DNA of 64,000 nt, from contig CBDATS010000004.1 in NCBI GenBank assembly GCA_965200245.1, positions 224,001-288,000 of the forward strand, given 5' to 3'. The notes beneath the pieces were generated by a model that was not told the origin of the DNA, searched no databases, and was given only the letters and a program-made list of their open reading frames with translations. Below, in pieces: positions 2,227-49,721 of this stretch. Position 1 is the stretch's first letter, and each line of letters begins with the position of its first letter. The DNA is from a bacterium (GTDB lineage Bacteria > UBA8248). Both the position numbers and the translations under genes were made by a program.

Positions 2227-2257
2227 GTGAAAACCTTTTTCTGCTTCCTGAGACGCT

Positions 2258-3436
<1,179 letters not shown>

Positions 3437-15667: not shown

Positions 15668-16144
15668 ATGAGCGAAGTCATTCACGTCACTAAAGCCCGG
15701 ATTGTCAAGGAACCCGGCAGGGGTATGAAGACGGGCTATCTCGACGCCTTCCCTGAGGACCCGATTCCCTACGGCATCCACGGAGGCATCAAGAACTTCT
15801 ACAAGGCCGAAACCGAAGAGGAGCGACCAGCCACGCTGGATCACCTCGCAGCCGCCGTCGCCGGGTGACTGACGGGCAACATGGGAGGCGCGCTGGATGC
15901 GCGCGGAATCAAGAGCAGCCCAGACAATCTCGTGGCAGAAGTGGAAGGCATCATCGAAAACGTGGACGGCATGGCCTTGGTCACCAAGATCAAGGTTCAC
16001 TACAAGTGCCGCATCCCCAAGGGCAACCGAGAAGAAGCAGAGCGCGCCCTCGCCGTGCACGAGAAGGGCTGCCCGGCCAGCCAGAGCGTGCAGCGGGGCA
16101 TCGCGGTCGAATATACGGCGGAGTTCGAAGAAGTGGACGAATAA
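15668..16144 (+). CDS. OsmC/Ohr-like protein with in-frame UGA (probable selenocysteine)
   Basis: GGAG RBS; frame runs ...DHLAAAVAG-TGA(15866-15868)-LTGNMGGALDARGI...CPASQSV; the UGA sits at the first conserved Cys of the OsmC fold. Confidence 0.85.
15888..15904 (+). promoter_or_regulatory. Putative bacterial SECIS hairpin
   Basis: GCGCGC-TGGAT-GCGCGC starting 19 nt after the UGA, G at loop position 2. Confidence 0.55.
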
Positions 16145-38152: not shown

Positions 38153-39358
38153 ATGAACAACGCAATCACCCCCGTTCCCGTGGATGGGGACTACGTCGTC
38201 GGCCTCGCGCAGGAATTGATTCGTATTCCGGCGGAAAATCCGCCGGGCGACTGCTCCGAGGTGGCCGAGCGCATTCTCGCGGAACTAAAATCCATCGGCG
38301 TCGATCAAATCACAACTCACGAATACGAGCCGGGAATGCCCAACTTCATCATTCAAGCGGGCGACGGCGGTCCGGGAGGGCACTTCGTTATCGGCGGCCA
38401 CATGGACACCGTGCCCGTCCACCCCGAAGAAACAGACGCCTGGCAAGTCCCCCCCTTCAGCGGCGAACTCAGGGACGGCGAAATCTGGGGACGCGGCGCC
38501 GCCGACATGAAAGGTGCTCTGGCGTCCACCATCGGCGCGTTCAAGGCCCTGAAGGATGAGAAAATCACCATAAACGGAACGCTCACCTGGGTCCTGCTCT
38601 CAGACGGCGAGAAAGGGGATTACTACGGTGCGCAGTCGCTGGTCAACAACGGCGTCTTGAAGGAATTGGACGGCGACATGGTGCTCTACACCGAATCGAC
38701 GGGTAACAACATCATCCGCTCCTTCAAGGGCCGTGTGTTCTTCGAGGTCAAGGTACGCGGCCACTCGGTGCACGTGAGCGTACCCGACAAGGGAATCAAC
38801 GCCATCGAGAAGATGGCGAAGATCATCGACGCATTCAGGGCGGAGCGCATTGCGCCTCCGCCGCATCCCTTCCTGGGGCCGGGCACCCTGGCCTTCTCGA
38901 CCATCAAGGGCGGCTCCGCCGTGAACGTCGTGGGTGGTCGGTGCAGTGCCACCTTCGATGTACGTATGCTGCCGGGGCAGACCTCCGCCGGCGTCAAGGA
39001 GAAGCTCGAAGGCATCCTGGCAGAACTCGCGCTGGGCGATCCCGAGTTCGACGCTTCGGTGGAGATAATGCCGAGCGGAGCGCGCGAGGTCACCGAAATC
39101 GCGGAAGAAGAACCCGTCGTGCAACTCATGGAGCGAGTAGTGCCCGCCGTGCGGGGAACACCGAACGAGTACCTGCCCGGCATCGAGTCTCCGGGCGCAC
39201 TCAGGCTCTTCATCGAGAACGGGATCCCGGGCGTCTTCTTCGGGCCGGGCGAATTCATCTCCGAAGCCCACCTGCCGAACGAGCGCGTACCCGCGCAAAA
39301 TCTCATCGACGCCGCCGGCATGTTCGCCACCGCCGCCAGGGCACATTGCAACGAGTGA
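38153..39358 (+). CDS. M20/ArgE/DapE family metallo-hydrolase
   Basis: GHMDTVP, GRGAADMKG, AHLPNE; EE motif altered to GE. Confidence 0.85.
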   Translation: MNNAITPVPVDGDYVVGLAQELIRIPAENPPGDCSEVAERILAELKSIGVDQITTHEYEPGMPNFIIQAGDGGPGGHFVIGGHMDTVPVHPEETDAWQVPPFSGELRDGEIWGRGAADMKGALASTIGAFKALKDEKITINGTLTWVLLSDGEKGDYYGAQSLVNNGVLKELDGDMVLYTESTGNNIIRSFKGRVFFEVKVRGHSVHVSVPDKGINAIEKMAKIIDAFRAERIAPPPHPFLGPGTLAFSTIKGGSAVNVVGGRCSATFDVRMLPGQTSAGVKEKLEGILAELALGDPEFDASVEIMPSGAREVTEIAEEEPVVQLMERVVPAVRGTPNEYLPGIESPGALRLFIENGIPGVFFGPGEFISEAHLPNERVPAQNLIDAAGMFATAARAHCNE

Positions 39359-39766
39359 GGAGGGTCCCGAAGCGGCGAAGTCTCTCTCCAGAAACGTCGT
39401 CCTATGTAAATCAAGAAGGCTATAGGCGGAAACACCGTTGTTCCGACATATCGATATATCAGGCTAAATCGTCGTTCCTGAATTCTTTGAAATTTGCTGA
39501 AATTATTAAAATTATTTGTCTTTTAAAATCCTGAGCAGGAATTGCATTCCATAACATGTAAAAGCGAAAGCGGATTCACTACAACCATTGCGCATCCTAT
39601 CGCGTCCCTAGCTGACGTTTACGCAGTTCCCCCGCAAAGTCCAACTTGCAATAGCCTCTTCTCATTTTTCACCGCGATCTTCTACACTCGCTTTGCGCTC
39701 TATAACTTTGTTTCAATACACTTGAATTCGCATGCGTCAGGGACCCTGTATCAGAATCGGGTTGCG

Positions 39767-40054
39767 ATGCAGTTGCAAAACAAGGGAACCTGGCTGAGGA
39801 GCACCCTGCTCGCCGCCGCACTCCTGTTCGGTGCGGCGGCGTTGCGCCGGCCGGGGCCTTTCCCATGCTGGAGTGCGTACATCGTCACCGTCGGCGGGGT
39901 TCCCGGTATCGCGGGGAGCCTGACGCCGTTCTTTCCCACGCTGAGTCCGGTGCGCCAGTTCGCACTGACCGCATTCAGCGTCCGGGCACTGGCCGTCGGC
40001 TTCCTGCTGCTGCGCGGCGCACGCGGATCGGCCGGAGGGTCCACCGCCGGATAG
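39767..40054 (+). pseudogene. Possible remnant: signal peptide fused to an IPTL-CTERM-like sorting tail
   Basis: High-GC patch; N-terminal hydrophobic leader and C-terminal PTLS+hydrophobic+basic tail with almost no body. Confidence 0.3.
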
Positions 40055-40148
40055 TCAGTGGAATCGTATCTCTCCCTGATTGATACAGTCCATACACACC
40101 GGAACTGTCAAAAAGGGATAGTTGCAAAAACAAATTTGTATTCCTGAC

Positions 40149-40585
40149 TTATCGTAGATGGGTGACCTCAATGCCGCCCCAGTGATCTTTAGGTACTCTG
40201 CCACGAGTCGACGGTGGCGATGATGTGGCTGGTCCTCGCTGCAGAGAAGGCATCCATCATCTATGACATCCTTCGGGGTAGTTTCCTCAATTCGCCGATC
40301 ACGCATCAGTTCGATAAATCGGGGTTCATAGGCCTTCCAGTCCATAGTCCCTGAGCGATACTCACGCAACAATTCTTTCGTGGGGGCGATATCCGGCAAA
40401 TGAATATAGTCTATCCCGCAAATCTCGTCGAGAAAGTATGCGAGATCGTTCTTCTTGGCGAAACCGGCGAGTTGCGAGCCGTTGTTGATTCGGACATCTA
40501 CTACCCGTTTCACACCCGAATTGCGGAGCAGGCTGAAGAAACGGGGTGCCGATTTCTTGGTAAACCCGATGGTGGACAGCTTCAT
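40149..40585 (-). pseudogene. DUF488 family protein, frameshifted near the 3' end
   Basis: TIGFTKKSA, VDVR, LLCSE..PHHRHRRLVAEYL (Cys to Arg); native-looking tail DHWGGIEVTHLR* lies in a shifted frame. Confidence 0.75.
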
Positions 40586-41211
40586 TGGACTGCTCCGGTG
40601 GAAGTGTTGATCAGATTTTCGTCCACGAAGGCAACGCGCCTTGCATGGCGTTCCACTGCTTGGACAACGAGATCCGCCCGGGACATGAACAGTTCGCCTT
40701 CGGGTCGCAGGTTGAAGCGTTCAAGCAAGCGATCCATCGCCTCGCCATGAGTTTCCAACTAGCCGCCGGCGTGGATATGGGCAACTTCGAGGCCACGTTC
40801 ATCAAGTGCCTGCGAGACAAGGAGTGTCCGGTGGCAGTCGAGTGGTTCCTTTTCCGCACACATGAGTGCGATGCAGTGTCTGTCACTCCCGTGAATTATG
40901 CTTTCGAGCCCGCATTGAAACAACTCGGTTGTAGCAACCCGATCATAACGGATGCGTCCGTCTTCGTAGCACTCAGGATTGGTGGAGCGACCACCTGGTT
41001 CGCGACCGAGATATACATACTCGATTCCGCCAGCCTTGTTGAGAGCATCGGCGAGCAAATCGCGATTAAACTGGACGTTAAAGCGACTGTAGGCTACTGA
41101 CCGGACATCGGCCAGGGCAGAGACTTGATGTTGCTGCAGAAGAGAACAGAAAGCCTCCAGGGTATGGGTGGAATGCCCGATGGTGAATATGGGATTGTCG
41201 GTTTTAGCCAT
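40582..41211 (-). pseudogene. DUF488 family protein with premature TAG
   Basis: TIGHS, DVRS, MCAE..P.DCHR; TAG at 40759-40761, then the frame continues (LETHGEAMDRLL...) to a TGA overlapping the next ATG. Confidence 0.75.
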
Positions 41212-41218
41212 GACTGTG

Positions 41219-41889
41219 TTATTCGGCTTCGATGACTGTTGCGATCAGCTTGTAGCAATAGGCCCCGAATAGTTCCCCGAGGCTGATGGAGAGGTAGCAG
41301 TTATGAAGCTCATAGATACCGTTTGGTTTATTCAGGTACTTTTCCTCATATATGGGATCGGTGAGTGATAGTTTGTATTCCACACTCGCATGCAAAAATT
41401 TGACCGATTACCTTAGGCCTATCCCCAAAACCTGAATGCTCGGATAACCCTAACTTATCGACATGGATTAGTCTCAATGAGTTTGAGACCTTTGCTATCT
41501 GTGAGCGAGGAATCCTGTCGTTCAACTTTCCGGATGCCGCCCAGAGTCGATCCATAGAGAAGCAACAGGATCCACGAGTTCAGAGAACCGATTCCGGGGA
41601 AAAATCCCATCCTTTGTCCAACGAGAGTCAGGATCAAGCAGCCAGTTTTCGGTTTGATGCTTTTCGGGCTGGTGCTTCAGGACCGGGATGGCAATGATGT
41701 CCAGTACCTGTGGGTCCTGGCCATTCCCATATAATCGTTCCTCCTCAGATATTTCCTGCCCCTCTCTTGCACTGACAGGCCGAACCCAGTTCCCTGCTTC
41801 CTGATTTTTGCTCCATTCCCGGCAGCGATGCATCGCCCTCCCGGCTTACGAGAATTGGCCAGGCAAACAATGCGCTTCAACCCGGACAT
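41219..41889 (-). pseudogene. Dual-OB-fold domain protein, multiply frameshifted
   Basis: Fragments KRIVCLANSRKPGGRCIA / WVRPVS...HQTENWL / NDRIP...SLRLI / LTDPIYE...SISLGE...YCYKLIATVI* in different frames. Confidence 0.7.
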
Positions 41890-42183
41890 GATTGCTATGA
41901 TATTCCTGTTTGTCTTATGAGATGCTCCGACAACCCTGCTGGGCTTAATTTAATGCATAGGTGTACATGGTCAAATAAATCACGAATACTACTGGCTCGC
42001 TGTGATCGGGTTTTTGACGGAACAATTCGATTTATTTTAAATTGTTCACTGTCATTTCGGTAAATGCTGGGATTCAGAACCGGGTTGGGGACAACGCTTC
42101 GACTGATAGGAAACAGAAACGACAAAGGGACAAGTCATGGCCTGTCCCTACGGAATCGCCAGGCATCTCTCATACTCGTATTC

Positions 42184-42215
42184 AAAAAAACGGGGGAGCG
42201 TCGCACACTCCCCCG
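42184..42215 (-). terminator. Rho-independent terminator of the LLM operon
   Basis: CGGGGGAG/CTCCCCCG stem followed by U7 on the minus strand. Confidence 0.75.
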
Positions 42216-42239
42216 GTCACATCACGCAAGGCTTTCGAG

Positions 42240-42617
42240 CTAATACCCTTCGTCTATCACCTCTTTGAGTTGCGTGCAGCCCGCCACGAGTGCAGTCATC
42301 CCGCATGGGGGAAGCATGCACTCCAAGGCCTCGGTCGCCTCCTCGACGGTCGCGCCAAGTTGCAAGGCTTTCTTCAGGTGGTTCTTTATGCCCTCGGTGT
42401 CGGAAGGGTCCCGCGAGGCACTCGCCACAGCGATGAAGAGTTCCTTGTATTTCTCGTGAAAGGGACCCTGTTTCTTCATGATGTGGTTCTTCAGGTTTTC
42501 GTAGTTCTCAAGAAGTTCCGGGTCCACCTCGCAGAGGAGTTCATACGCCGGATAGATAAATCCCCGTGCCGCCTTCATCTCCTCGTACAAGGCCCTGCCC
42601 CGCTCGCTCATCGCCAT
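42240..42617 (-). CDS. Carboxymuconolactone decarboxylase (CMD) family protein
   Basis: KYKELFIAVA...HLKKALQLGATVEE. Confidence 0.85.
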   Translation of the reverse strand: MAMSERGRALYEEMKAARGFIYPAYELLCEVDPELLENYENLKNHIMKKQGPFHEKYKELFIAVASASRDPSDTEGIKNHLKKALQLGATVEEATEALECMLPPCGMTALVAGCTQLKEVIDEGY

Positions 42618-42661
42618 CGTGAATCCTCCTCAAGCCAACCCCCGTCTCGGGCACAAAACTC

Positions 42662-43432
42662 CTATGGATACACTTCCTTCTCGAGCACGGAAACCTCGTG
42701 CCCGGGCAGGATGTATTCCTCTTTCGTGGCGCGTTCGATGCACTTCCAGATGGAGTCCATCGCGTCGCGCATACTCGACATCTGTCCTGCGGGAACACGA
42801 CGTTCAAGTCCTTCATTTATCTGGATGACGTCGGCGGCGATGACGTAGGTGCCCACGCGCGTCTCGACGGCGACCGAACAATGCCCCGGAGTATGGCCCG
42901 GCGTGTGGAAATAGGTTACGCCCGGCACGATCTCGTAATTGTCCTTCCAGATCGGCTCGAAGATGATTCCCTGCTGCGCGATCACGGGCCAGCGGGTGTT
43001 GGGGTGAATCGGCGCGTCGTAGGGCTTCGACTGCAGCGCGACCGGGCAGATGGAGTATTGAAGCTCCTCGGCCCACACGTACTTGATGGCGTTGGTGAAC
43101 AAGTCACAGTTCTGGGAGTGATCCCAGTGGAGGTGCGTAAGGATGAGGATATCGACTTCCTCGGGCTTCCAGCCCGCGCCTTCGAGTTGCTCGCGTACGC
43201 CCTGGCCGGGTTCCCTGCTCGCGGGCCATGGGGCACCGCCGCGCTCGGGGTCCAGGAAACTGGTATCGACCACAACCTTCACATCTTTGCCGTCGTGGTC
43301 TTTCGCCCCTTCGATCATATAGATGAACGAGGGAATGGCGAGCTTCTTCCCGAAATTCGTCCAATACACCATATTGGAGTAATCCGTGTGAATGGTGCCG
43401 CAGTTCAGCGGACGGATGGTGAGGTCTGGCAT
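42662..43432 (-). CDS. Metallo-beta-lactamase fold, N-acyl-homoserine lactonase-like
   Basis: THLHWDH, TPGHTPGH, AAD, PGHE. Confidence 0.88.
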   Translation of the reverse strand: MPDLTIRPLNCGTIHTDYSNMVYWTNFGKKLAIPSFIYMIEGAKDHDGKDVKVVVDTSFLDPERGGAPWPASREPGQGVREQLEGAGWKPEEVDILILTHLHWDHSQNCDLFTNAIKYVWAEELQYSICPVALQSKPYDAPIHPNTRWPVIAQQGIIFEPIWKDNYEIVPGVTYFHTPGHTPGHCSVAVETRVGTYVIAADVIQINEGLERRVPAGQMSSMRDAMDSIWKCIERATKEEYILPGHEVSVLEKEVYP

Positions 43433-43549
43433 GGAAACTCTTCCTTTCTGCTTTGTTTCGCGGCCGTGGCGGACCGCAAACCTATGATGGCGAATACGCC
43501 GGATAATCACCGACCGGACGCCCCAAGGCCGGCGAACGGATGTTCGTGC

Positions 43550-44149
43550 TCAGGCCCGCGCGGTTCTCGCGTAGCGCACCACCTCCATCAACTCCTCGGG
43601 GCCTTCGGATTCGACCGCGTCGAGACCGAGAGCGAGGTTCAGCCGGTTGCTCATGTTCCGGTACGACACCGATCCGATAATGTCCAAAATGTTCTCGTCG
43701 CTGAAGCCCGCCCCGCGCAGCGAGTCGAGATCCTCCTCGCTCATGGCGTAGTGGTCGAACGTGAGTTTTTCGGCGAATTCGAGCATCGCCTTGTCGGCAT
43801 CGTCGAGAACCGGGGAATTGTTCCTGTCCATCACCACGGTGGCCACATCGGCCAGTGTTACGTCATCACCGCTTTCTGCACGGAAAGCCTGGCCATGGTT
43901 CATCGTTCAGCCATAGCACCCGCCGATGGTGGCCACATAGTAGGAAAGCAACTCCTCGCGTCTCTGGCCCAGCGTCGAATTGCCGCCGTGAACAGCCATG
44001 TTCATGGTCTGGCGTCCGTTCAGCACCTCAGGCCTGCGCGCCATCGTGAGCAGCAGCTTGGGCACCGCGCCTCTTTTCGCCCTGATGCCCTCAAGTATTC
44101 CGTGCGCGGGTTCCTGGGCGTCATTCAGCCTCAATGGGGATATCCACAT
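43550..44149 (-). CDS. AhpD/CMD-like peroxidase-related protein with in-frame UGA (CxxU; probable selenocysteine)
   Basis: Two track ORFs share a frame: ...ELLSYYVATIGGCYG-TGA(43907-43909)-TMNHG...FAEKLT...GFSDENILDI...NMSNRL. Confidence 0.85.
43871..43888 (-). promoter_or_regulatory. Putative bacterial SECIS hairpin
   Basis: GCTTTC-CGTGCA-GAAAGC starting 18 nt after the UGA, G at loop position 2. Confidence 0.55.
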
Positions 44150-44182
44150 TCTCCGTTCTCCTCCATACCGATACCGGTTGCT

Positions 44183-45229
44183 TTACGTCACCGCACGCTC
44201 CTCCTGGAACGCGGGCATCACCTCTTTCGCAAACCTCTCTATTGATTGAATCGCCTCGTCTTGGGCAATGCCGCGCAGAACGAAGATCATGATGTGATCC
44301 ACCCTGAATTCCGCCTGGAGTCGCTTGAGGTCGGCAATCACCTTCTCCGGCGGGCCTATGACGCCGCCGCCCTCGATGACCTCGCGGATGTCGACCTCGT
44401 AGCTCCAATTTCGCTTGAGCGCCTCTTTCTCCTCAAGCGGCATCTCGATGGCGTTCACCGCACTGCGATAGGAGAGATACCAAGATTCGGAGGGTTCGAT
44501 TTGCCTCCAAGCATGTTCCGGGTCGTCACACACGTGGACATGGTGCGCCATGAGGGAGGGATAATCGTTCGGGTCGCCCCCCCGGTTGCGCACAGTCTCC
44601 TGGAAAAGCGCCATCTTTTCCAGAAATACGTCGGGGCCCTTGAAAGTGCCCGAAGCCATTATATTGTAGCCCTTCTGTCCGGCGAAGACATAGGTCTCGG
44701 GACTCGTGCCCGCCAGCCATATGGGAGGACGAGGCTTCTGGATGGGCTTCGGGAAAATTTCTGCATCAATGCAGCTGTAATACTTCCCGTGGAAGGTGAG
44801 GCATTCTCCCTCCAGCAGGCGGGTAATCACCTCAAGACCTTCCTGCATCTTCTCCCTGCTTTCGGTGGGGGAGATGTTGAAACCCTGAAACTCTTTGGGC
44901 TGGGAACCGCGCCCGACACCAAGCTCCAGACGTCCGCCGCTCAGCACGTCAACGAGGGCCGCCTGTTCGGCGAGGCGCACCGGATTGTGGAAGGGTACGA
45001 TGCAGATAGCGGTGCCGATTCGTATCTTCCTGGTTCTTTGCGCGATGGCGAGCGCGACCATCAGGGCGTCGGGGCACATGCCCACGCGGGAGAAATGGTG
45101 CTCAGCCAGAAATACCGTGTCGTAGCCGAGTTCGTCCGCCACCTCGCACTGTTCGATCAGTTGCTCGAACTCGTGGCAATAGGTCTCCCCTTCCTGGCAG
45201 GCAGGAATATAAAAAAGCGAAAATTTCAT
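44183..45229 (-). CDS. Luciferase-like (LLM) flavin-dependent oxidoreductase
   Basis: AEHHFS, RLAEQAA.VDVLSGGRLELGVGRG, PKPIQKPRPPIW. Confidence 0.92.
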   Translation of the reverse strand: MKFSLFYIPACQEGETYCHEFEQLIEQCEVADELGYDTVFLAEHHFSRVGMCPDALMVALAIAQRTRKIRIGTAICIVPFHNPVRLAEQAALVDVLSGGRLELGVGRGSQPKEFQGFNISPTESREKMQEGLEVITRLLEGECLTFHGKYYSCIDAEIFPKPIQKPRPPIWLAGTSPETYVFAGQKGYNIMASGTFKGPDVFLEKMALFQETVRNRGGDPNDYPSLMAHHVHVCDDPEHAWRQIEPSESWYLSYRSAVNAIEMPLEEKEALKRNWSYEVDIREVIEGGGVIGPPEKVIADLKRLQAEFRVDHIMIFVLRGIAQDEAIQSIERFAKEVMPAFQEERAVT

Positions 45230-45277
45230 CTTTCATGCCTCCATGCCGTTCATGAAATGCCCGCGCGCATGGGCGGC

Positions 45278-45676
45278 TTACGCGCCCATCGTGAAGACCT
45301 TGTCCGCCCGGATACGGTAGATGACGCGCACCTGGCCCTCCTGGCGGTTGGGATAGCTCTCCACCCCCAGGTACTTCTGCGCAAGAGAATCAATGTGTTC
45401 TTCCGCCCCGTTCTCGGTAATCTCGACGACCGTGCCCTGAATTCCCACCCACCTGTAGGCATTTTCGGGGTCAACGATGGCGATCGACACCTTCGGCCTT
45501 GCGCGCATGTTCAGGTCCTTCAGGCGGTTCTTCGCAGAATTGATCTCAATGATGTCCCCGTTGGTATTGAACCACACGGGAGAGACCTGCGGAGAGCCGT
45601 CCTTGTTCTGGGTACCCAGATACAGGAGGGCCTTGGTGTCGAGAATACCGGCATGAGATTCGGGTATCAGCGCCAT
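45278..45676 (-). CDS. PPOX-class (probably F420-dependent) oxidoreductase
   Basis: GSPQVSPVW, K..N...P.VS, IDSLAQKYLG. Confidence 0.85.
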   Translation of the reverse strand: MALIPESHAGILDTKALLYLGTQNKDGSPQVSPVWFNTNGDIIEINSAKNRLKDLNMRARPKVSIAIVDPENAYRWVGIQGTVVEITENGAEEHIDSLAQKYLGVESYPNRQEGQVRVIYRIRADKVFTMGA

Positions 45677-45724
45677 GTTGGATTCCTTATATGAAAAAGA
45701 TTCTCGATTGCGTCCCGGGTACGA

Positions 45725-46699
45725 TCAGACGCACTTGGGCAAAACCTCTTCGGTGAACATTCTGAGAGATTCGTCGAAATCCTGGACTGGCGGATCGATC
45801 ATGATACTCTTGACGCCGTAGGACTCTACTTCCTTGATGCGCTCGACGCACTGTTCGGGTGTTCCCGTGATGGTGAAGCGGTCCAGAATATAGTCGGTGA
45901 TGAGGGGCACGTGCTTGGGATCCCGCCAGTTGCTCACGTCGAAATTGTCAAGAAGGTTCTGAATCTCGGGCTTGTACGGGTCAGGCACCGAATCGAGCGT
46001 CATGCGGAAGTTGTGATGCGCGCGGTTCGCCACTCGCGCCCGTACCTTCTCTCTAGCACGCACACCGTCGGTATCCACAGAGACGACCGCACCGAAAATG
46101 ACATCCATTTCCCCAAGAGAGGGGTCGCGATTCGCCATTCCCTCGTTCAGGTATTTCATCACCCAGTCCACCGTCTCCTGGTAGACGCCCGAACCCACGA
46201 TGACGCCGTCTGCGACTTCGGCCGACATGGAAAGCGTCCTGGGACCCTCGGCGGAAGTGTAGATGGGGATTTCCCGTTCACACCACATCTTCACGTTCAC
46301 GTCCTCTGCATATTCCACCGTCTCGCCGCGTGTAAACGCGCGAATGGCAGCGATGGACTCGCGCATCCGGGCGAGCCGGGCCATCTTCTTGCCCAGCGTG
46401 TAGACAGGCGTGTCGCCCGAACCAATACCGAACAGCACGCGGCCTCCCGAGAGTTCATCGAGCGTCGCGATCGTGCTCGCTGCCACGCTGTCGTCATGCA
46501 GCACCGGGTTCGTTACGCCGGGGCCGATTTTCACGTGCGAAGTATTCTCAATCGCCAGAGCGAGTGCGACGTTGTGATCCCGGCAGGTGAGGTGGCTCTC
46601 CGCAATCCAGACCTGCTCGAAGCCGTTGTCCTCGGCGTATTTCGAACGCTGCGCCACAAGCCGGATGTCATCCGGCACCAGGTGAAGACTGAAACTCAT
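45725..46699 (-). CDS. LLM oxidoreductase, Mer-like (F420-dependent type)
   Basis: IGPGVTNP, ATLDELSGGRVLFGIGSGD, GPRTL; start uncertain. Confidence 0.85.
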   Translation of the reverse strand: MSFSLHLVPDDIRLVAQRSKYAEDNGFEQVWIAESHLTCRDHNVALALAIENTSHVKIGPGVTNPVLHDDSVAASTIATLDELSGGRVLFGIGSGDTPVYTLGKKMARLARMRESIAAIRAFTRGETVEYAEDVNVKMWCEREIPIYTSAEGPRTLSMSAEVADGVIVGSGVYQETVDWVMKYLNEGMANRDPSLGEMDVIFGAVVSVDTDGVRAREKVRARVANRAHHNFRMTLDSVPDPYKPEIQNLLDNFDVSNWRDPKHVPLITDYILDRFTITGTPEQCVERIKEVESYGVKSIMIDPPVQDFDESLRMFTEEVLPKCV

Positions 46700-46751
46700 A
46701 CCCACGAAAAGCGCCTCCTGAACTTTGAAAGGAAAAGATGCCTTCAGGGCA

Positions 46752-47822
46752 TCAGGATTGACTTCCATTAGAGCCAGCGGGCACGGCGGCGTGCACCAGC
46801 GGCATGACATCGTTTGCGAAACTTTCTATCGAGCGCATCACCGAGGCATGGTCCGGCCCACGCCAAGGTGCCAGGATAAGGTGATTTACTCCGTAATCGT
46901 CGCGCAGTCTACAGATATCCGCCGCAACGGCCTGAGGATCGGCGATAATGCCGCCTCCCTTGACGATCTCGGCGACGTTCAGTTCATAGCTCCAATTGCG
47001 TTTCAAGTGCCTGGCTTCTTCCTCGGGCATTTCCACCTCATTTACCCTCGCACGGTAGCGCAGGTACTCGCCCTCGCCATCCACCGTGAGCCGGAAGCAT
47101 TCATCGACATCCTCCGCGTCGCACACGTGGATGTGGTGAACGAGTGGCCTCTCGATTCCAGCGGGGTCGACGCCTGATTTCCGGATGGCGTCCTCATACA
47201 ACCCGAACTTCTGCCTGTAGACATCCGGACCCGTAAATCCCGCCGAGGCCGTCACTTTGAAGCCGTTCTCGCCGGCGTAGGTGTAGGTTTCGGGACTCGT
47301 GCCCGCCAGCCAGATGGAGGGTCTCGGCTTCTGCAGGGGCTTGGGAAAGATTTCCACACCCTCGCAGTTATGATACCGCCCCTGGAACGTCACCTTCCGC
47401 CCTTCAAGCAGGCGGGAGAGAATGTAAAGTCCTTCCTTGAGGCGTTCCCGGCTTTCAGAAGGTCTCGCGCTGAACCCCTGGAACTCCTTGGGCTGAGAAC
47501 CTCGTCCCACGCCCAACTCCAGCCTGCCACCGCTAATGAGATCCACCATGGCAGCCTGCTCGGCCAGCCGGATGGGATCGTGGAACGACATGATGGAAAT
47601 GGCCGTCCCCAAATGTATTCTTTTCGTCTTTTGCGCGACTGCGGCACAGATGAGGAGAGGATCGGGAATCATCCCGACGCGGGAGAAGTGATGCTCGGCG
47701 TACCAGACGCACGAATAGCCCAATTCATCCGCCAGCGCGCTCTCTTCGATCATCTCCTCATGTACCAGAGCCTCCGTCATGTCTTCGGGACGGTATAGAA
47801 TGTAGAACAGCGAATATTCCAT
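46752..47822 (-). CDS. LLM flavin-dependent oxidoreductase (paralog of 44183-45229)
   Basis: AEHHFSRVGM, GVGRGSQPKEFQGF, LAGTSPETY. Confidence 0.92.
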   Translation of the reverse strand: MEYSLFYILYRPEDMTEALVHEEMIEESALADELGYSCVWYAEHHFSRVGMIPDPLLICAAVAQKTKRIHLGTAISIMSFHDPIRLAEQAAMVDLISGGRLELGVGRGSQPKEFQGFSARPSESRERLKEGLYILSRLLEGRKVTFQGRYHNCEGVEIFPKPLQKPRPSIWLAGTSPETYTYAGENGFKVTASAGFTGPDVYRQKFGLYEDAIRKSGVDPAGIERPLVHHIHVCDAEDVDECFRLTVDGEGEYLRYRARVNEVEMPEEEARHLKRNWSYELNVAEIVKGGGIIADPQAVAADICRLRDDYGVNHLILAPWRGPDHASVMRSIESFANDVMPLVHAAVPAGSNGSQS

Positions 47823-48078
47823 AAAACTATTCCCGGTATCGCAGCGTGAACCTCGATTGGGTGAGTTTCTCTTGTCCTGCCCGGAAGACGGTCCTCGCGA
47901 CGAGTAAAACGCGACCTTCAGGTTTCCCGTATTCGGAATTGGGAGTCATAATGCCGATACCGTCGCTGGCGCGTCAAGGTTGCCCGCCGAATTTACAAAT
48001 TTCGGGTTATCAAATATGCTTGGCCGCTGCTTGAATCATATTGAACGATGAAATACAGGTTTTCCAAGCGGAGGCACC

Positions 48079-48837
48079 TTGAGTTCACTCGCCTTGATTC
48101 TGGCTTTCTGCGCCGCGTTCGTCGGCTCGGGCCTCAAAGCCGTAGGCGGATTCGGCTTCGCCACCCTCACGACACCCACCGTGGCCATTTTCTGGGATTT
48201 GCCCACGGCCATCGCCGTCATTTCCATCCCCACCCTGTGCACGAGCCTCATGAACGCCTGGCGAACGCGTGCCGCCGTCCACGAGGGTTTGAGACCCTTC
48301 GTGCCCTTCTTTTCCATGAGCCTCGTGGGCCTGGCCGCCGGCCTGACGATTCTTCTGAACACCGACCCGCGCCTCATGAAATTCATCCTAGGCGCCTTTT
48401 TGATCTGCCAGATCGTCTGGCAATGGTTCCAGCCCGAAAAACCAGCGCCTGAAAAGTCCCTGAAGCGATCACTGGGCATGGGTGCGGTCGCGGGGCTGAT
48501 GCTTGGCACCATAAACATCCCTTCCCACGTCATTGCCTCATACCTCACCGGAATGAAGATATCCAAAGAGCGCTATCTCTTCGTACTGAGCGCAAGCCAG
48601 GTGGTACTCAGAGTCGCGGCCATTGCTTCCATCGCGGCGGCGGGCTACATCGGCGAGACGGCCCTGTGGCTCATACTCATTCTCTCGACGCCCGTGCTGC
48701 TCGGCTTTTTCGTGGGCACGAAGATATACAACATCTTCACGGATCAGGCGTTCTTCCGTATCGTAACTGCTGTTCTGTTCCTGATGGGCGTTATACTCCT
48801 TGTCATGAACTACGAGGGAATCGCCGCTTTTTTCTGA
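48079..48837 (+). CDS. TauE/SafE (TSUP) family membrane protein
   Basis: GGFGFA, about 8 TM helices. Confidence 0.82.
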   Translation: MSSLALILAFCAAFVGSGLKAVGGFGFATLTTPTVAIFWDLPTAIAVISIPTLCTSLMNAWRTRAAVHEGLRPFVPFFSMSLVGLAAGLTILLNTDPRLMKFILGAFLICQIVWQWFQPEKPAPEKSLKRSLGMGAVAGLMLGTINIPSHVIASYLTGMKISKERYLFVLSASQVVLRVAAIASIAAAGYIGETALWLILILSTPVLLGFFVGTKIYNIFTDQAFFRIVTAVLFLMGVILLVMNYEGIAAFF

Positions 48838-48968
48838 TTTTCTGGAATTACATCGCAAACCCTGACGGAATTGACGGGGACGAATCATCCGCGCTATTTT
48901 CAGATTCATCGCAAAAACAAAAAAAGCAAAATCATGTTCCGACAGACATTGCATAAGGACCGAACAAC

Positions 48969-49721
48969 ATGCCGGCGAAAGTAAGTATCAAGAATCTGCA
49001 TATGGAATACTACCTGAAGGACAGAAAGGTGCACGCCTTAGAGGACATCAATCTCGATATCCAGGATGGCGAGTTCCTCTGTGTCGTGGGACTGTCCGGT
49101 TGCGGGAAGACCACGCTTCTCAACATCCTGGCCGGATTCCTGAGCCATACGGCGGGTTCCATTCTCCTGGACGGCAACCCCATCTCGGCCGCGGGCCGCA
49201 TGAACCGTGGCGTCGTGTTTCAGGAATACGCGCTCTTTCCGTGGCGTACGGCGCTCAGGAACGTCGAGTTCGGCCTCGAGATGAAGGGTTTCACCAAGGA
49301 AGAACGCAGGCAAAAGGCGCAGGAATACCTGGAACTCGTTCATCTCGAGAAATTCACCCATCTCTACCCCCACAACCTCTCCGGCGGCATGAAGCAGCGC
49401 GTCGCCGTGGCACGGGCTTACGCGTACGAACCCCAGTTCATGCTGATGGACGAGCCTTTCGGCGCGCTCGACGCGCAGACGCGCGAGAACCTCCAGTCAC
49501 TGACGGTCGAGGTCTGGGAAAAAACGAAAAAGACCATCTTCTACGTCACGCACAACCTGAGCGAGGCGGTATACCTCGCCGACAGGATCATCGTTCTCGC
49601 AGGTCAGCCGGGGCAGATTCACAAGGAGATTATCGTGGACGTTCCACGTCCCCGGGACCCCTTCGACCCGAGGGTGATTGAACTCGAACATATGGCGACG
49701 GAAGCCGTACGCGGCAACTAG
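48969..49721 (+). CDS. ABC transporter ATP-binding protein (TauB/SsuB-like)
   Basis: GLSGCGKT, LSGGMKQR, DEPFGALD, VTH. Confidence 0.93.
   Translation: MPAKVSIKNLHMEYYLKDRKVHALEDINLDIQDGEFLCVVGLSGCGKTTLLNILAGFLSHTAGSILLDGNPISAAGRMNRGVVFQEYALFPWRTALRNVEFGLEMKGFTKEERRQKAQEYLELVHLEKFTHLYPHNLSGGMKQRVAVARAYAYEPQFMLMDEPFGALDAQTRENLQSLTVEVWEKTKKTIFYVTHNLSEAVYLADRIIVLAGQPGQIHKEIIVDVPRPRDPFDPRVIELEHMATEAVRGN

Follow-up and report, generated by a model that had tools for sequence, protein, structure and literature searches.

The DNA analysed here is a stretch of 64,000 nucleotides from a bacterium of the GTDB lineage UBA8248 (assembly GCA_965200245.1, contig CBDATS010000004.1, positions 224,001 to 288,000 of the forward strand), referred to below as the window; positions without a prefix are those of the window, and contigs of the 3.68-Mb genome to which it belongs are given as C2, C4, C5, C8 and so on. 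The subject is a locus on the minus strand, 43550..44149, which had been proposed to hide an AhpD-like selenoprotein with a CxxU motif. Under translation table 11 this locus is read as two open reading frames (ORFs), one of 80 amino acids that ends in TGA (44149..43907) and one of 117 amino acids (43903..43550). The codon string on which the original prediction was based (TGC TAT GGC TGA ACG ATG AAC CAT) is present on the minus strand with its TGA at 43909-43907, and reading this TGA as selenocysteine (Sec, U) reproduced the predicted fusion of the two ORFs into one protein of 199 residues (80 + U + 118), with the motif C78-Y-G-U81-T-M-N-H85. The in-frame UGA (43907..43909, minus strand) is codon 81, the second position of C-x-x-C. 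The complete gene runs from an ATG at 44149-44147, through the Sec codon, to a true TGA stop at 43552-43550, and a Shine-Dalgarno-like GGAGGAG is found at 44158..44164, 8 nt 5′ of the ATG. Public records of the clade show the halves only, as an 80-amino-acid "hypothetical protein" and an unnamed ORF of 116-117 amino acids. From the evidence set out below, it is very probable that the locus is a single gene encoding a 199-residue AhpD-like oxidoreductase of the "peroxidase-related" group (TIGR01926 / COG2128), whose UGA at codon 81 is decoded as Sec by the SelA, SelB, SelD and tRNA-Sec of the same organism.

An AhpD-like protein with predicted Sec in place of the second cysteine

The joined product matches the NCBIfam model TIGR01926 ("peroxidase-related enzyme") over residues 2-177, across the TGA, with a score of 109.9 bits against a cut-off of 81.8, and it is the sole match above this cut-off in the whole genome. 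A sequence search of the PDB returned the AhpD-like structures 6k40, 3c1l, 2pfx, 2prr and 2oyo (E-values of 1e-17 to 1e-11), with their CxxC...H residues aligned to C78, U81 and H85. An AlphaFold2 model based on 83 aligned sequences is all-helical with a mean pLDDT of 92.6, and Foldseek comparison gave TM-scores of 0.72-0.78 to 3c1l, 6k40 and 2oyo; as modelled, the protein has an AhpD-like fold.

The alignment that had been suggested as a check on Cys/Sec pairing was built from 82 full-length homologues, taken from the top 150 representatives and two matches found earlier, with fragments and longer fused proteins left out. Cys faces the UGA in 70 of the 82 sequences and occupies the column of the first Cys in 73; His85 and Glu66 are retained in 79 and 76, respectively, in agreement with the predicted AhpD CxxCxxxH core carrying Sec at the second Cys. 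The full-length homologues are single chains with Cys at this site, rather than two separate genes that lack it. The putative relay Glu66...Cys78-x-x-Sec81-x-x-x-His85 has the Glu-12-Cys-x-x-Cys-x-x-x-His spacing of the AhpD proton relay described for PA0269 and Mycobacterium tuberculosis AhpD (PMC3141380), with Sec replacing the second Cys.

Two features fit the family assignment less well. The Pfam CMD model (PF02627), which matched region 40-120, missed its gathering threshold marginally (22.6 against 23 bits), and the residue preceding the second Cys, which is Tyr in 68 of the 83 rows of the alignment, is Gly here, with the Tyr one position earlier. The motif is accordingly C-Y-G-U at this locus versus C-x-Y-C/U in most homologues, including all 20 paralogues. 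Gamma-carboxymuconolactone decarboxylase was considered as an alternative assignment and rejected: the CxxU...H relay is present, and TM-scores to 4g9q and 2q0t are only 0.36-0.55.

Conservation of the UGA and constraint on the sequence 3′ of it

Orthologues were sought at E <= 1e-35 in 51 species genomes of the GTDB phylum. This search returned 28 copies with 61-92% identity, each with exactly one in-frame TGA, in 27 of the 51 genomes: the genome of the window, 21 of the 22 other members of its genus, all four members of genus g5 and one of the two of genus g8. The only genus member without a copy is represented by a genome that is 79% complete. All 26 loci that were read carry the motif C-Y-G-U-T-[M/I/L/V]-N-H. 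No Cys-form orthologue was found within the 51 genomes at this threshold; Cys forms at ~50% identity (P0014 and P0030) occur in metagenome collections.

Both halves of the gene are under purifying selection, with dN/dS values within the genus of 0.06-0.11 over codons 1-80 and 0.10-0.21 over codons 82-199 (comparisons with genus g5 by the Nei-Gojobori method were saturated, with pS ~1, and were excluded). Synonymous-codon entropy was compared in 12-codon windows across 24 orthologues, two of the 26 having been dropped because of indels. Mean entropy was 0.27-0.28 at codons 81-96, compared with 0.42-1.10 elsewhere in the gene; codons GGC86, TTC89, CGT90 and GAA92 are unchanged in all 24 orthologues, and GCT88 is unchanged in all 21 that keep Ala at this position. 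The feature is beyond chance because the TGA is conserved in 28 of 28 copies, is paired with Cys in homologues and is followed by a local loss of synonymous variation.

A search for selABCD, which the original prediction had named as a check, showed that the Sec machinery is complete, with selA (572.7 bits), selB (391.9 bits), selD (338.6 bits) and tRNA-Sec (75.9 bits) all above curated cut-offs. The selA and selB genes are adjacent on contig 4, with selB at C4:1421793-1423679, and selD, which itself contains one TGA, and tRNA-Sec (C8:357344-357436) are on contig 8. The stop codon of the gene at 43550..44149 is itself TGA, and those of its orthologues are TAA, TAG or TGA interchangeably, which excludes a genome-wide reassignment of TGA.

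If the TGA were instead a true stop, the locus would be either a pseudogene or a pair of independent small genes, encoding 80 and 117 amino acids, without Sec. This is how public gene calls split it, and an ATG does lie two codons past the TGA. Set against this are the single family domain and single predicted fold that run across the TGA, the retention of the TGA throughout three genera with low dN/dS (0.06-0.21) on either side, the homologues that are single chains with Cys at the Sec site, the placement of the synonymous constraint exactly 3′ of the TGA, and the presence of selA, selB, selD and tRNA-Sec, so that a pseudogene and a split gene are each very unlikely. A recoded stop, in which a standard amino acid (such as Trp, Cys or Gly) is inserted at the UGA via recoding or near-cognate suppression, is just as improbable. 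It has no specific point in its favour, and it is opposed by the fact that TGA serves as a normal stop codon in this genome, the end of the gene itself included, by the redox Cys of the aligned homologues, by the dedicated tRNA-Sec, SelA, SelB and SelD, and by the dozens of other redox-motif TGAs with downstream hairpins in the same genome.

Two mutually exclusive candidate hairpins follow the UGA

The constrained stretch 3′ of the UGA is the probable selenocysteine insertion sequence (SECIS), and two hairpins fit within it. Hairpin A (43868..43893, minus strand), the one put forward in the original prediction, has a 6-bp stem GCUUUC/GAAAGC (43888-43883 paired with 43876-43871) after an 18-nt spacer and a loop CGUGCA that starts at +25 and has G at its second position; the stem can be lengthened by three GCC/GGU pairs over a 2-nt AG bulge. 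Its core has a predicted energy of -6.9 kcal/mol, and its pair probability is 0.96 in the 60-nt fold of this gene and reaches 0.98-0.99 when 45-nt segments from the genus are folded. In a set of 22 distinct sequences, 82.6% of the cells are paired and two pairs change on both sides, including a change from G-C to A-U in g5, and the resulting covariation score was reached by none of 500 shuffles. Its geometry is, as had been predicted, nearly that of the hairpin in the OsmC-type selenoprotein gene of the window: an 18-nt spacer, a 6-bp GCUUUC stem and a CGUGCA loop here, and a 19-nt spacer, a 6-bp GCGCGC stem and a UGGAU loop in the OsmC gene.

Hairpin B (43879..43897, minus strand) consists of a CAUGG/CCGUG stem with a 9-nt loop (-3.0 kcal/mol), and is mutually exclusive with hairpin A. 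Across relatives, where it reads CAYGG/CCGUG, 109 of 110 core cells pair and there is no covariation. Folding predicts hairpin B for g5 and for a group of sister paralogues with a UxxU motif (described below), and a strong SECIS-like hairpin of ~6-9 bp occupies its site in the paralogous AhpD-like selenoprotein genes of the lineage (RNAfold; 18 of 20 fetched loci and two of three earlier, distant ones). Hairpin A lies ~9 nt downstream of this usual position for the family.

A number of observations weigh against hairpin A, or against giving a hairpin much weight at all. In 60-nt folds of the other genus members the probability of hairpin A ranges from 0.00 to 0.99 and is dependent on context; in g5 it is weakened by a mismatch and hairpin B folds instead; and the lineages behind its covariation score are few and related. 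A perfect 6-bp hairpin at the same position is seen for 3.8% of the 6651 in-frame sites taken from long ORFs of the genome, or 2.2% when G is required in the first two loop bases, and the 83-nt segment is not unusually stable when compared with shuffles (z = -0.48). A chance rate of 2-4% and this z-score make the hairpin weak evidence when it is taken by itself. In the other likely selenoprotein genes of the genome the apical loops (for example GGUC, GUA, GUG, AGGC and AGGUG) mostly start at +17 to +22, earlier than the +25 of hairpin A; a loop start at +25 or +26 is found in three genes, namely this gene, the OsmC gene of the window and a peroxiredoxin (Prx)-like gene. An Rfam scan of 43700-44000 with E-values up to 10 returned no SECIS family, and only three chance-level snoRNA and frameshift matches. 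The existence of two exclusive hairpins also tells against a simple assignment; pair counts, energies and ensemble probabilities favour A in the genus, and B in g5 and the UxxU paralogues. On balance, hairpin A is the better candidate for the element bound by SelB in this genus, where it seems to have taken over, further downstream, from an ancestral B-type element.

The gene lies in a conserved cluster with oxidoreductase genes

The neighbouring genes are all on the minus strand and are separated by short gaps. Upstream of the selenoprotein gene, across a 33-nt gap, is a gene for a luciferase-like (LLM class) flavin/F420 oxidoreductase (44183..45229), which is preceded by a PPOX-class F420-dependent oxidoreductase (45278..45676; TIGR03618 above cut-off) and by two further LLM-class oxidoreductases (45725-46810 and 46752-47822). 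Downstream are a metallo-beta-lactamase-fold (MBL) protein (42662..43510), for which lactonases are the best matches, none of them reaching its cut-off, and a CMD-family protein of 125 amino acids without an in-frame TGA (42240..42617), which is the last gene of the cluster and is 90-100% identical across 17 related loci. This order (PPOX, LLM, selenoprotein gene, MBL, CMD) is shared by all 17 related loci, which come from two genera. Directly past the CMD gene is an intrinsic-terminator-like hairpin of 11 pairs followed by a T run (42191..42215, minus strand), which is the likely end of the operon. The TGA at 45725-45727 (minus strand), the stop of the LLM gene at 45725-46810, is in frame with the PPOX gene, and was picked up as a false read-through candidate (L121).

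Metatranscriptome contigs from two runs match the locus with zero differences, TGA included: one of 2595 nt covers 42216-44810 and one of 833 nt covers 43545-44377. As support for expression these are limited, since contigs from RNA libraries show presence only, not strand, ends or level, and may derive from DNA carry-over. Runs that carry nearly the complete stretch are labelled as sponge metagenome or bear an organism name given as a code.

A sister paralogue in related genomes carries two in-frame UGAs

Relatives carry a sister paralogue with 42-49% identity to the 43550..44149 protein that also scores above the TIGR01926 cut-off (88 bits). In all seven loci read (L050-L056; for example L051:277-873, minus strand) it contains two TGAs, giving the motif U-Y-G-U-A-x-N-H. 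It is present in 24 of the 51 phylum genomes, comprising 19 of 22 genus members, the single g3 genome and four of the five g2 genomes. The genome of the window holds only an internally deleted remnant, in which the first 10 residues run in frame directly into residue ~114 and those after it, and this remnant is present twice (C4:127136-127390 and C5:835962-836216). Identical matches for two queries at C4:~127-129 kb and C5:~834-836 kb suggest a duplicated stretch or assembly redundancy in this genome, for which contamination is given as 8.11%. In the tables of PMC13188914 and PMC9312934 the UxxU motif is listed for Prx-like, mercuric-reductase-like and FmdB-type proteins only, and no description of a UxxU or diselenide form of the AhpD fold was found in literature searches or in these two tables, a survey that did not cover the contents of BSepDB.

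The genome is rich in predicted selenoprotein genes

The genome-wide UGA read-through search that had been proposed alongside the original prediction was carried out by scanning the 3.68-Mb genome for coding potential, using a model for which ORFs of >=700 amino acids, with overlaps resolved, served as the seed. It gave 131 read-through candidates, of which the 40 with a redox-type motif were carried forward, corresponding to 39 distinct regions (the 43550..44149 gene and 38 others). Among the 38 others, a Pfam domain spans the TGA in 27, and in one more (L122) the TGA is spanned by TIGR01926. A further seven have no domain that spans the TGA, six of these being adjacent genes in the same frame (among them the LLM/PPOX pair at 45725-45727) and one having its TGA upstream of the only domain; in two GrdB/PrdB-like matches the domain ends four residues before U, and one region (L109, described below) is ambiguous. 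Including the 43550..44149 gene, at least 29 genes therefore have a family domain that spans an in-frame TGA, in addition to selD, a count that is a motif-selected lower bound and not a census.

These 29 genes comprise 11 of the CMD/AhpD type (the 43550..44149 gene among them), four OsmC, four UGSC, three deiodinase-like/Prx, four AhpC-TSA (one with UxxU), and one each of thioredoxin, GrdA and DUF3179. With two candidates below cut-off counted, up to 13 CMD/AhpD-superfamily genes, again including 43550..44149, have one in-frame TGA; most of them show C-x-Y-U-x-x-H-N and a GGUC loop from +22, and examples of the type are found at C2:110790-111329, C4:461286-461813, C4:1107241-1107759, C5:510296-510823, C5:686702-687139, C8:205885-206394, C5:15085-15600 and C15:128341-129117. 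The earlier suggestion of a Sec-rich proteome is borne out by this count, and the lineage has been published as selenoprotein-rich: BSepDB gives 54, 50 and 48 selenoprotein genes for three Nitrospinota metagenome-assembled genomes (MAGs) labelled "UBA8248/UBA8248", which are placed among the ten richest bacteria (PMC13326102), and the count obtained here agrees with these figures.

The second selenoprotein gene of the window, of OsmC type (L106), is located at 15668-16144 on the plus strand. Its TGA at 15865-15867 lies within A-V-A-G-U-L-T-G and is spanned by the Pfam OsmC domain, and the 6-bp GCGCGC hairpin described above follows 19 nt after the UGA. Three further OsmC-type genes with an in-frame TGA occur elsewhere in the genome (L119, L125 and L129). 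A Prx-like (AhpC-TSA) gene at C8:308279-308842 (L137) has two TGAs in the motif H-W-U-P-Y-U (UxxU) and adjoins a UxxC paralogue at C8:307600-308160. Three paralogues with G-A-I-T-U-P-P (C2:279356-279994, C4:1411931-1412728 and C5:27410-28249) have Pfam matches to iodothyronine deiodinase (PF00837), Redoxin and AhpC-TSA across the TGA. A small ORF with a nucleotidyltransferase domain at C4:551629-551964 (L109) has a TGA at codon 28 inside its Pfam match (F-C-E-R-U-K), which may be a Sec codon, a start-site artefact or a broken gene. Elsewhere in the window, an EF-Tu/SelB-family match with one internal TAG (2231-3400, minus strand; C4:226231-227400) lies near tRNA-like matches at C4:226155-226226 and C4:228046-228126, and is probably a boundary effect.

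Proposed mechanism and physiological role

Decoding of the UGA would be directed by a SECIS hairpin within 15-45 nt after it, which in this genus is most likely hairpin A. In M. tuberculosis AhpD the second Cys (Cys133) is the attacking nucleophile. At the equivalent position, the selenolate of Sec81 may attack an oxidised substrate, which could be a hydroperoxide or the sulfenate or disulfide of a partner protein; a selenenylsulfide between Cys78 and Sec81 would then form, which thiols of the cell would reduce again. The gene would be co-transcribed, in a conserved cluster, with the LLM-class and PPOX-class flavin/F420 oxidoreductases, the lactonase-like MBL protein and the small CMD protein, and its physiological job is therefore probably tied to that neighbouring oxidative pathway. 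The operon context argues for flavin/F420-dependent oxidation chemistry over a classical AhpC partner. A point against a peroxidase function is that none of the 12 ORFs scanned in 38153-49721 (~5 kb on either side) is an AhpC/Prx gene, and an "alkylhydroperoxidase" role is therefore unsupported by the context.

The same context leaves room for a different role, in which the protein is a real selenoprotein that acts as a selenol-based small-molecule reductase serving a flavin/F420 monooxygenase-lactonase-CMD pathway, for example by reductive dehalogenation of the kind catalysed by Bmp8, and not in peroxide defence. This would suit the conserved operon with its three LLM-class enzymes, PPOX F420 enzyme, lactonase-like MBL protein and CMD protein, whose five-gene core is kept in all 17 related loci, as well as the lack of a nearby AhpC/Prx gene and the near-identical DNA in runs labelled as sponge metagenome. 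Bmp8 (6ohi) matches the family profile with an E-value of 2.2e-19 and the model with a TM-score of 0.70, and in work on Bmp8 its Cys mechanism has reportedly been likened to that of the Sec-dependent deiodinases. However, identity to Bmp8 is only 17-18%, no halogenase or bmp-type gene was present among the same 12 ORFs, and the nearest relatives of known structure are "peroxidase-related" proteins, of which DR1765, the one that has a phenotype, gives an H2O2-sensitive mutant when deleted (PMC8945050). A role of this kind is unlikely, though more probable than the other rival readings. Membership in the Bmp8-type debrominases was tried as an assignment and set aside on the basis of the 17-18% identity and the LLM, PPOX, MBL and CMD neighbours.

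A broader and more speculative form of this idea takes in the sister paralogue. Here the CYGU protein and its UYGU sister would not be adaptors in peroxide defence; in sponge-associated Nitrospinota, both would use their selenols to reduce small molecules within a conserved flavin/F420 monooxygenase-lactonase-CMD pathway, possibly carrying out Bmp8/deiodinase-like dehalogenation, with the UxxU sister cycling via a diselenide. We regard this as doubtful, and less probable than the reductase role for the CYGU protein by itself. For the 43550..44149 gene, an AhpD-like selenoprotein oxidoreductase linked to its oxidative gene cluster remains the preferred interpretation.

Comparison with known systems

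Both the protein family and the selenium-rich lineage have already been described. Joining the two halves of the locus recovers a complete redox enzyme and puts right its annotation in 27 or more species-level genomes. It also provides a clean example for tuning selenoprotein finders, in which the TGA and the region downstream of it are conserved while the hairpin is short, moved relative to the paralogues and poor on energy alone. The gene adds to the published picture that sponge-associated Nitrospinota invest heavily in selenium, and its fixed operon offers a concrete route to the substrate of a large family whose function is still unknown.

The stretch 3′ of the UGA resembles known bacterial SECIS elements in two respects: a hairpin whose apical loop contains G/U lies no more than a few tens of nt past the UGA, and the region is synonymously constrained. 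It differs from them in having no Rfam match, two alternative hairpins and a loop start later than that of most selenoprotein genes in the genome. The solved Cys-type relatives share 30-35% identity (Deinococcus radiodurans DR1765, 6k40; Mesorhizobium Mlr4105, 3c1l; and 2pfx) or 22-24% identity (2prr and 2oyo) with the predicted protein; they have Cys where it would have Sec, and are mostly structural-genomics entries without a known substrate.

In M. tuberculosis AhpD (1knc and 1gu9), the spacing Glu118-Cys130-x-x-Cys133-x-x-x-His137 equals that of Glu66-Cys78-x-x-Sec81-x-x-x-His85 (PMC3141380). The two proteins differ in chain topology (TM-scores of 0.43-0.47), and the profile match is limited to the two-helix motif. 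Their loci differ as well: M. tuberculosis ahpD adjoins ahpC, whereas no Prx gene lies near the selenoprotein gene among the 12 ORFs scanned. The tetrabromopyrrole debrominase Bmp8 (6ohi and 6ohj) belongs to the same AhpD-like superfamily and its profile match extends over nearly the full length, whereas its identity is low and its gene context is other than that found here; this comparison is one of match ranges, not of catalytic residues.

The nearest known system is the family of AhpD-like selenoproteins predicted from the Sargasso Sea and Global Ocean Sampling (GOS) metagenomes, in line with the original statement that such proteins occur in environmental bacteria. An AhpD-like family defined by TIGR01926 with a CxxU motif and one Sec is listed in PMC13188914, the entry "COG2128 (YciW), CxxU" appears in PMC9312934, and in the table of GOS families "AhpD-like 1, COG2128, CxxU" ranks fourth by number, counting 299 members with Sec and 902 with Cys (PMC2398784). 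The gene described here shares with this family the TIGR01926 model, the CxxU position and the single Sec. It is distinguished by its C-Y-G-U motif, its fixed LLM/PPOX/lactonase/CMD operon, a candidate SECIS that is apparently shifted ~9 nt downstream and the annotation of its halves only in public records, which, together with the UxxU sister paralogue in relatives, represent a modest addition to the known family.

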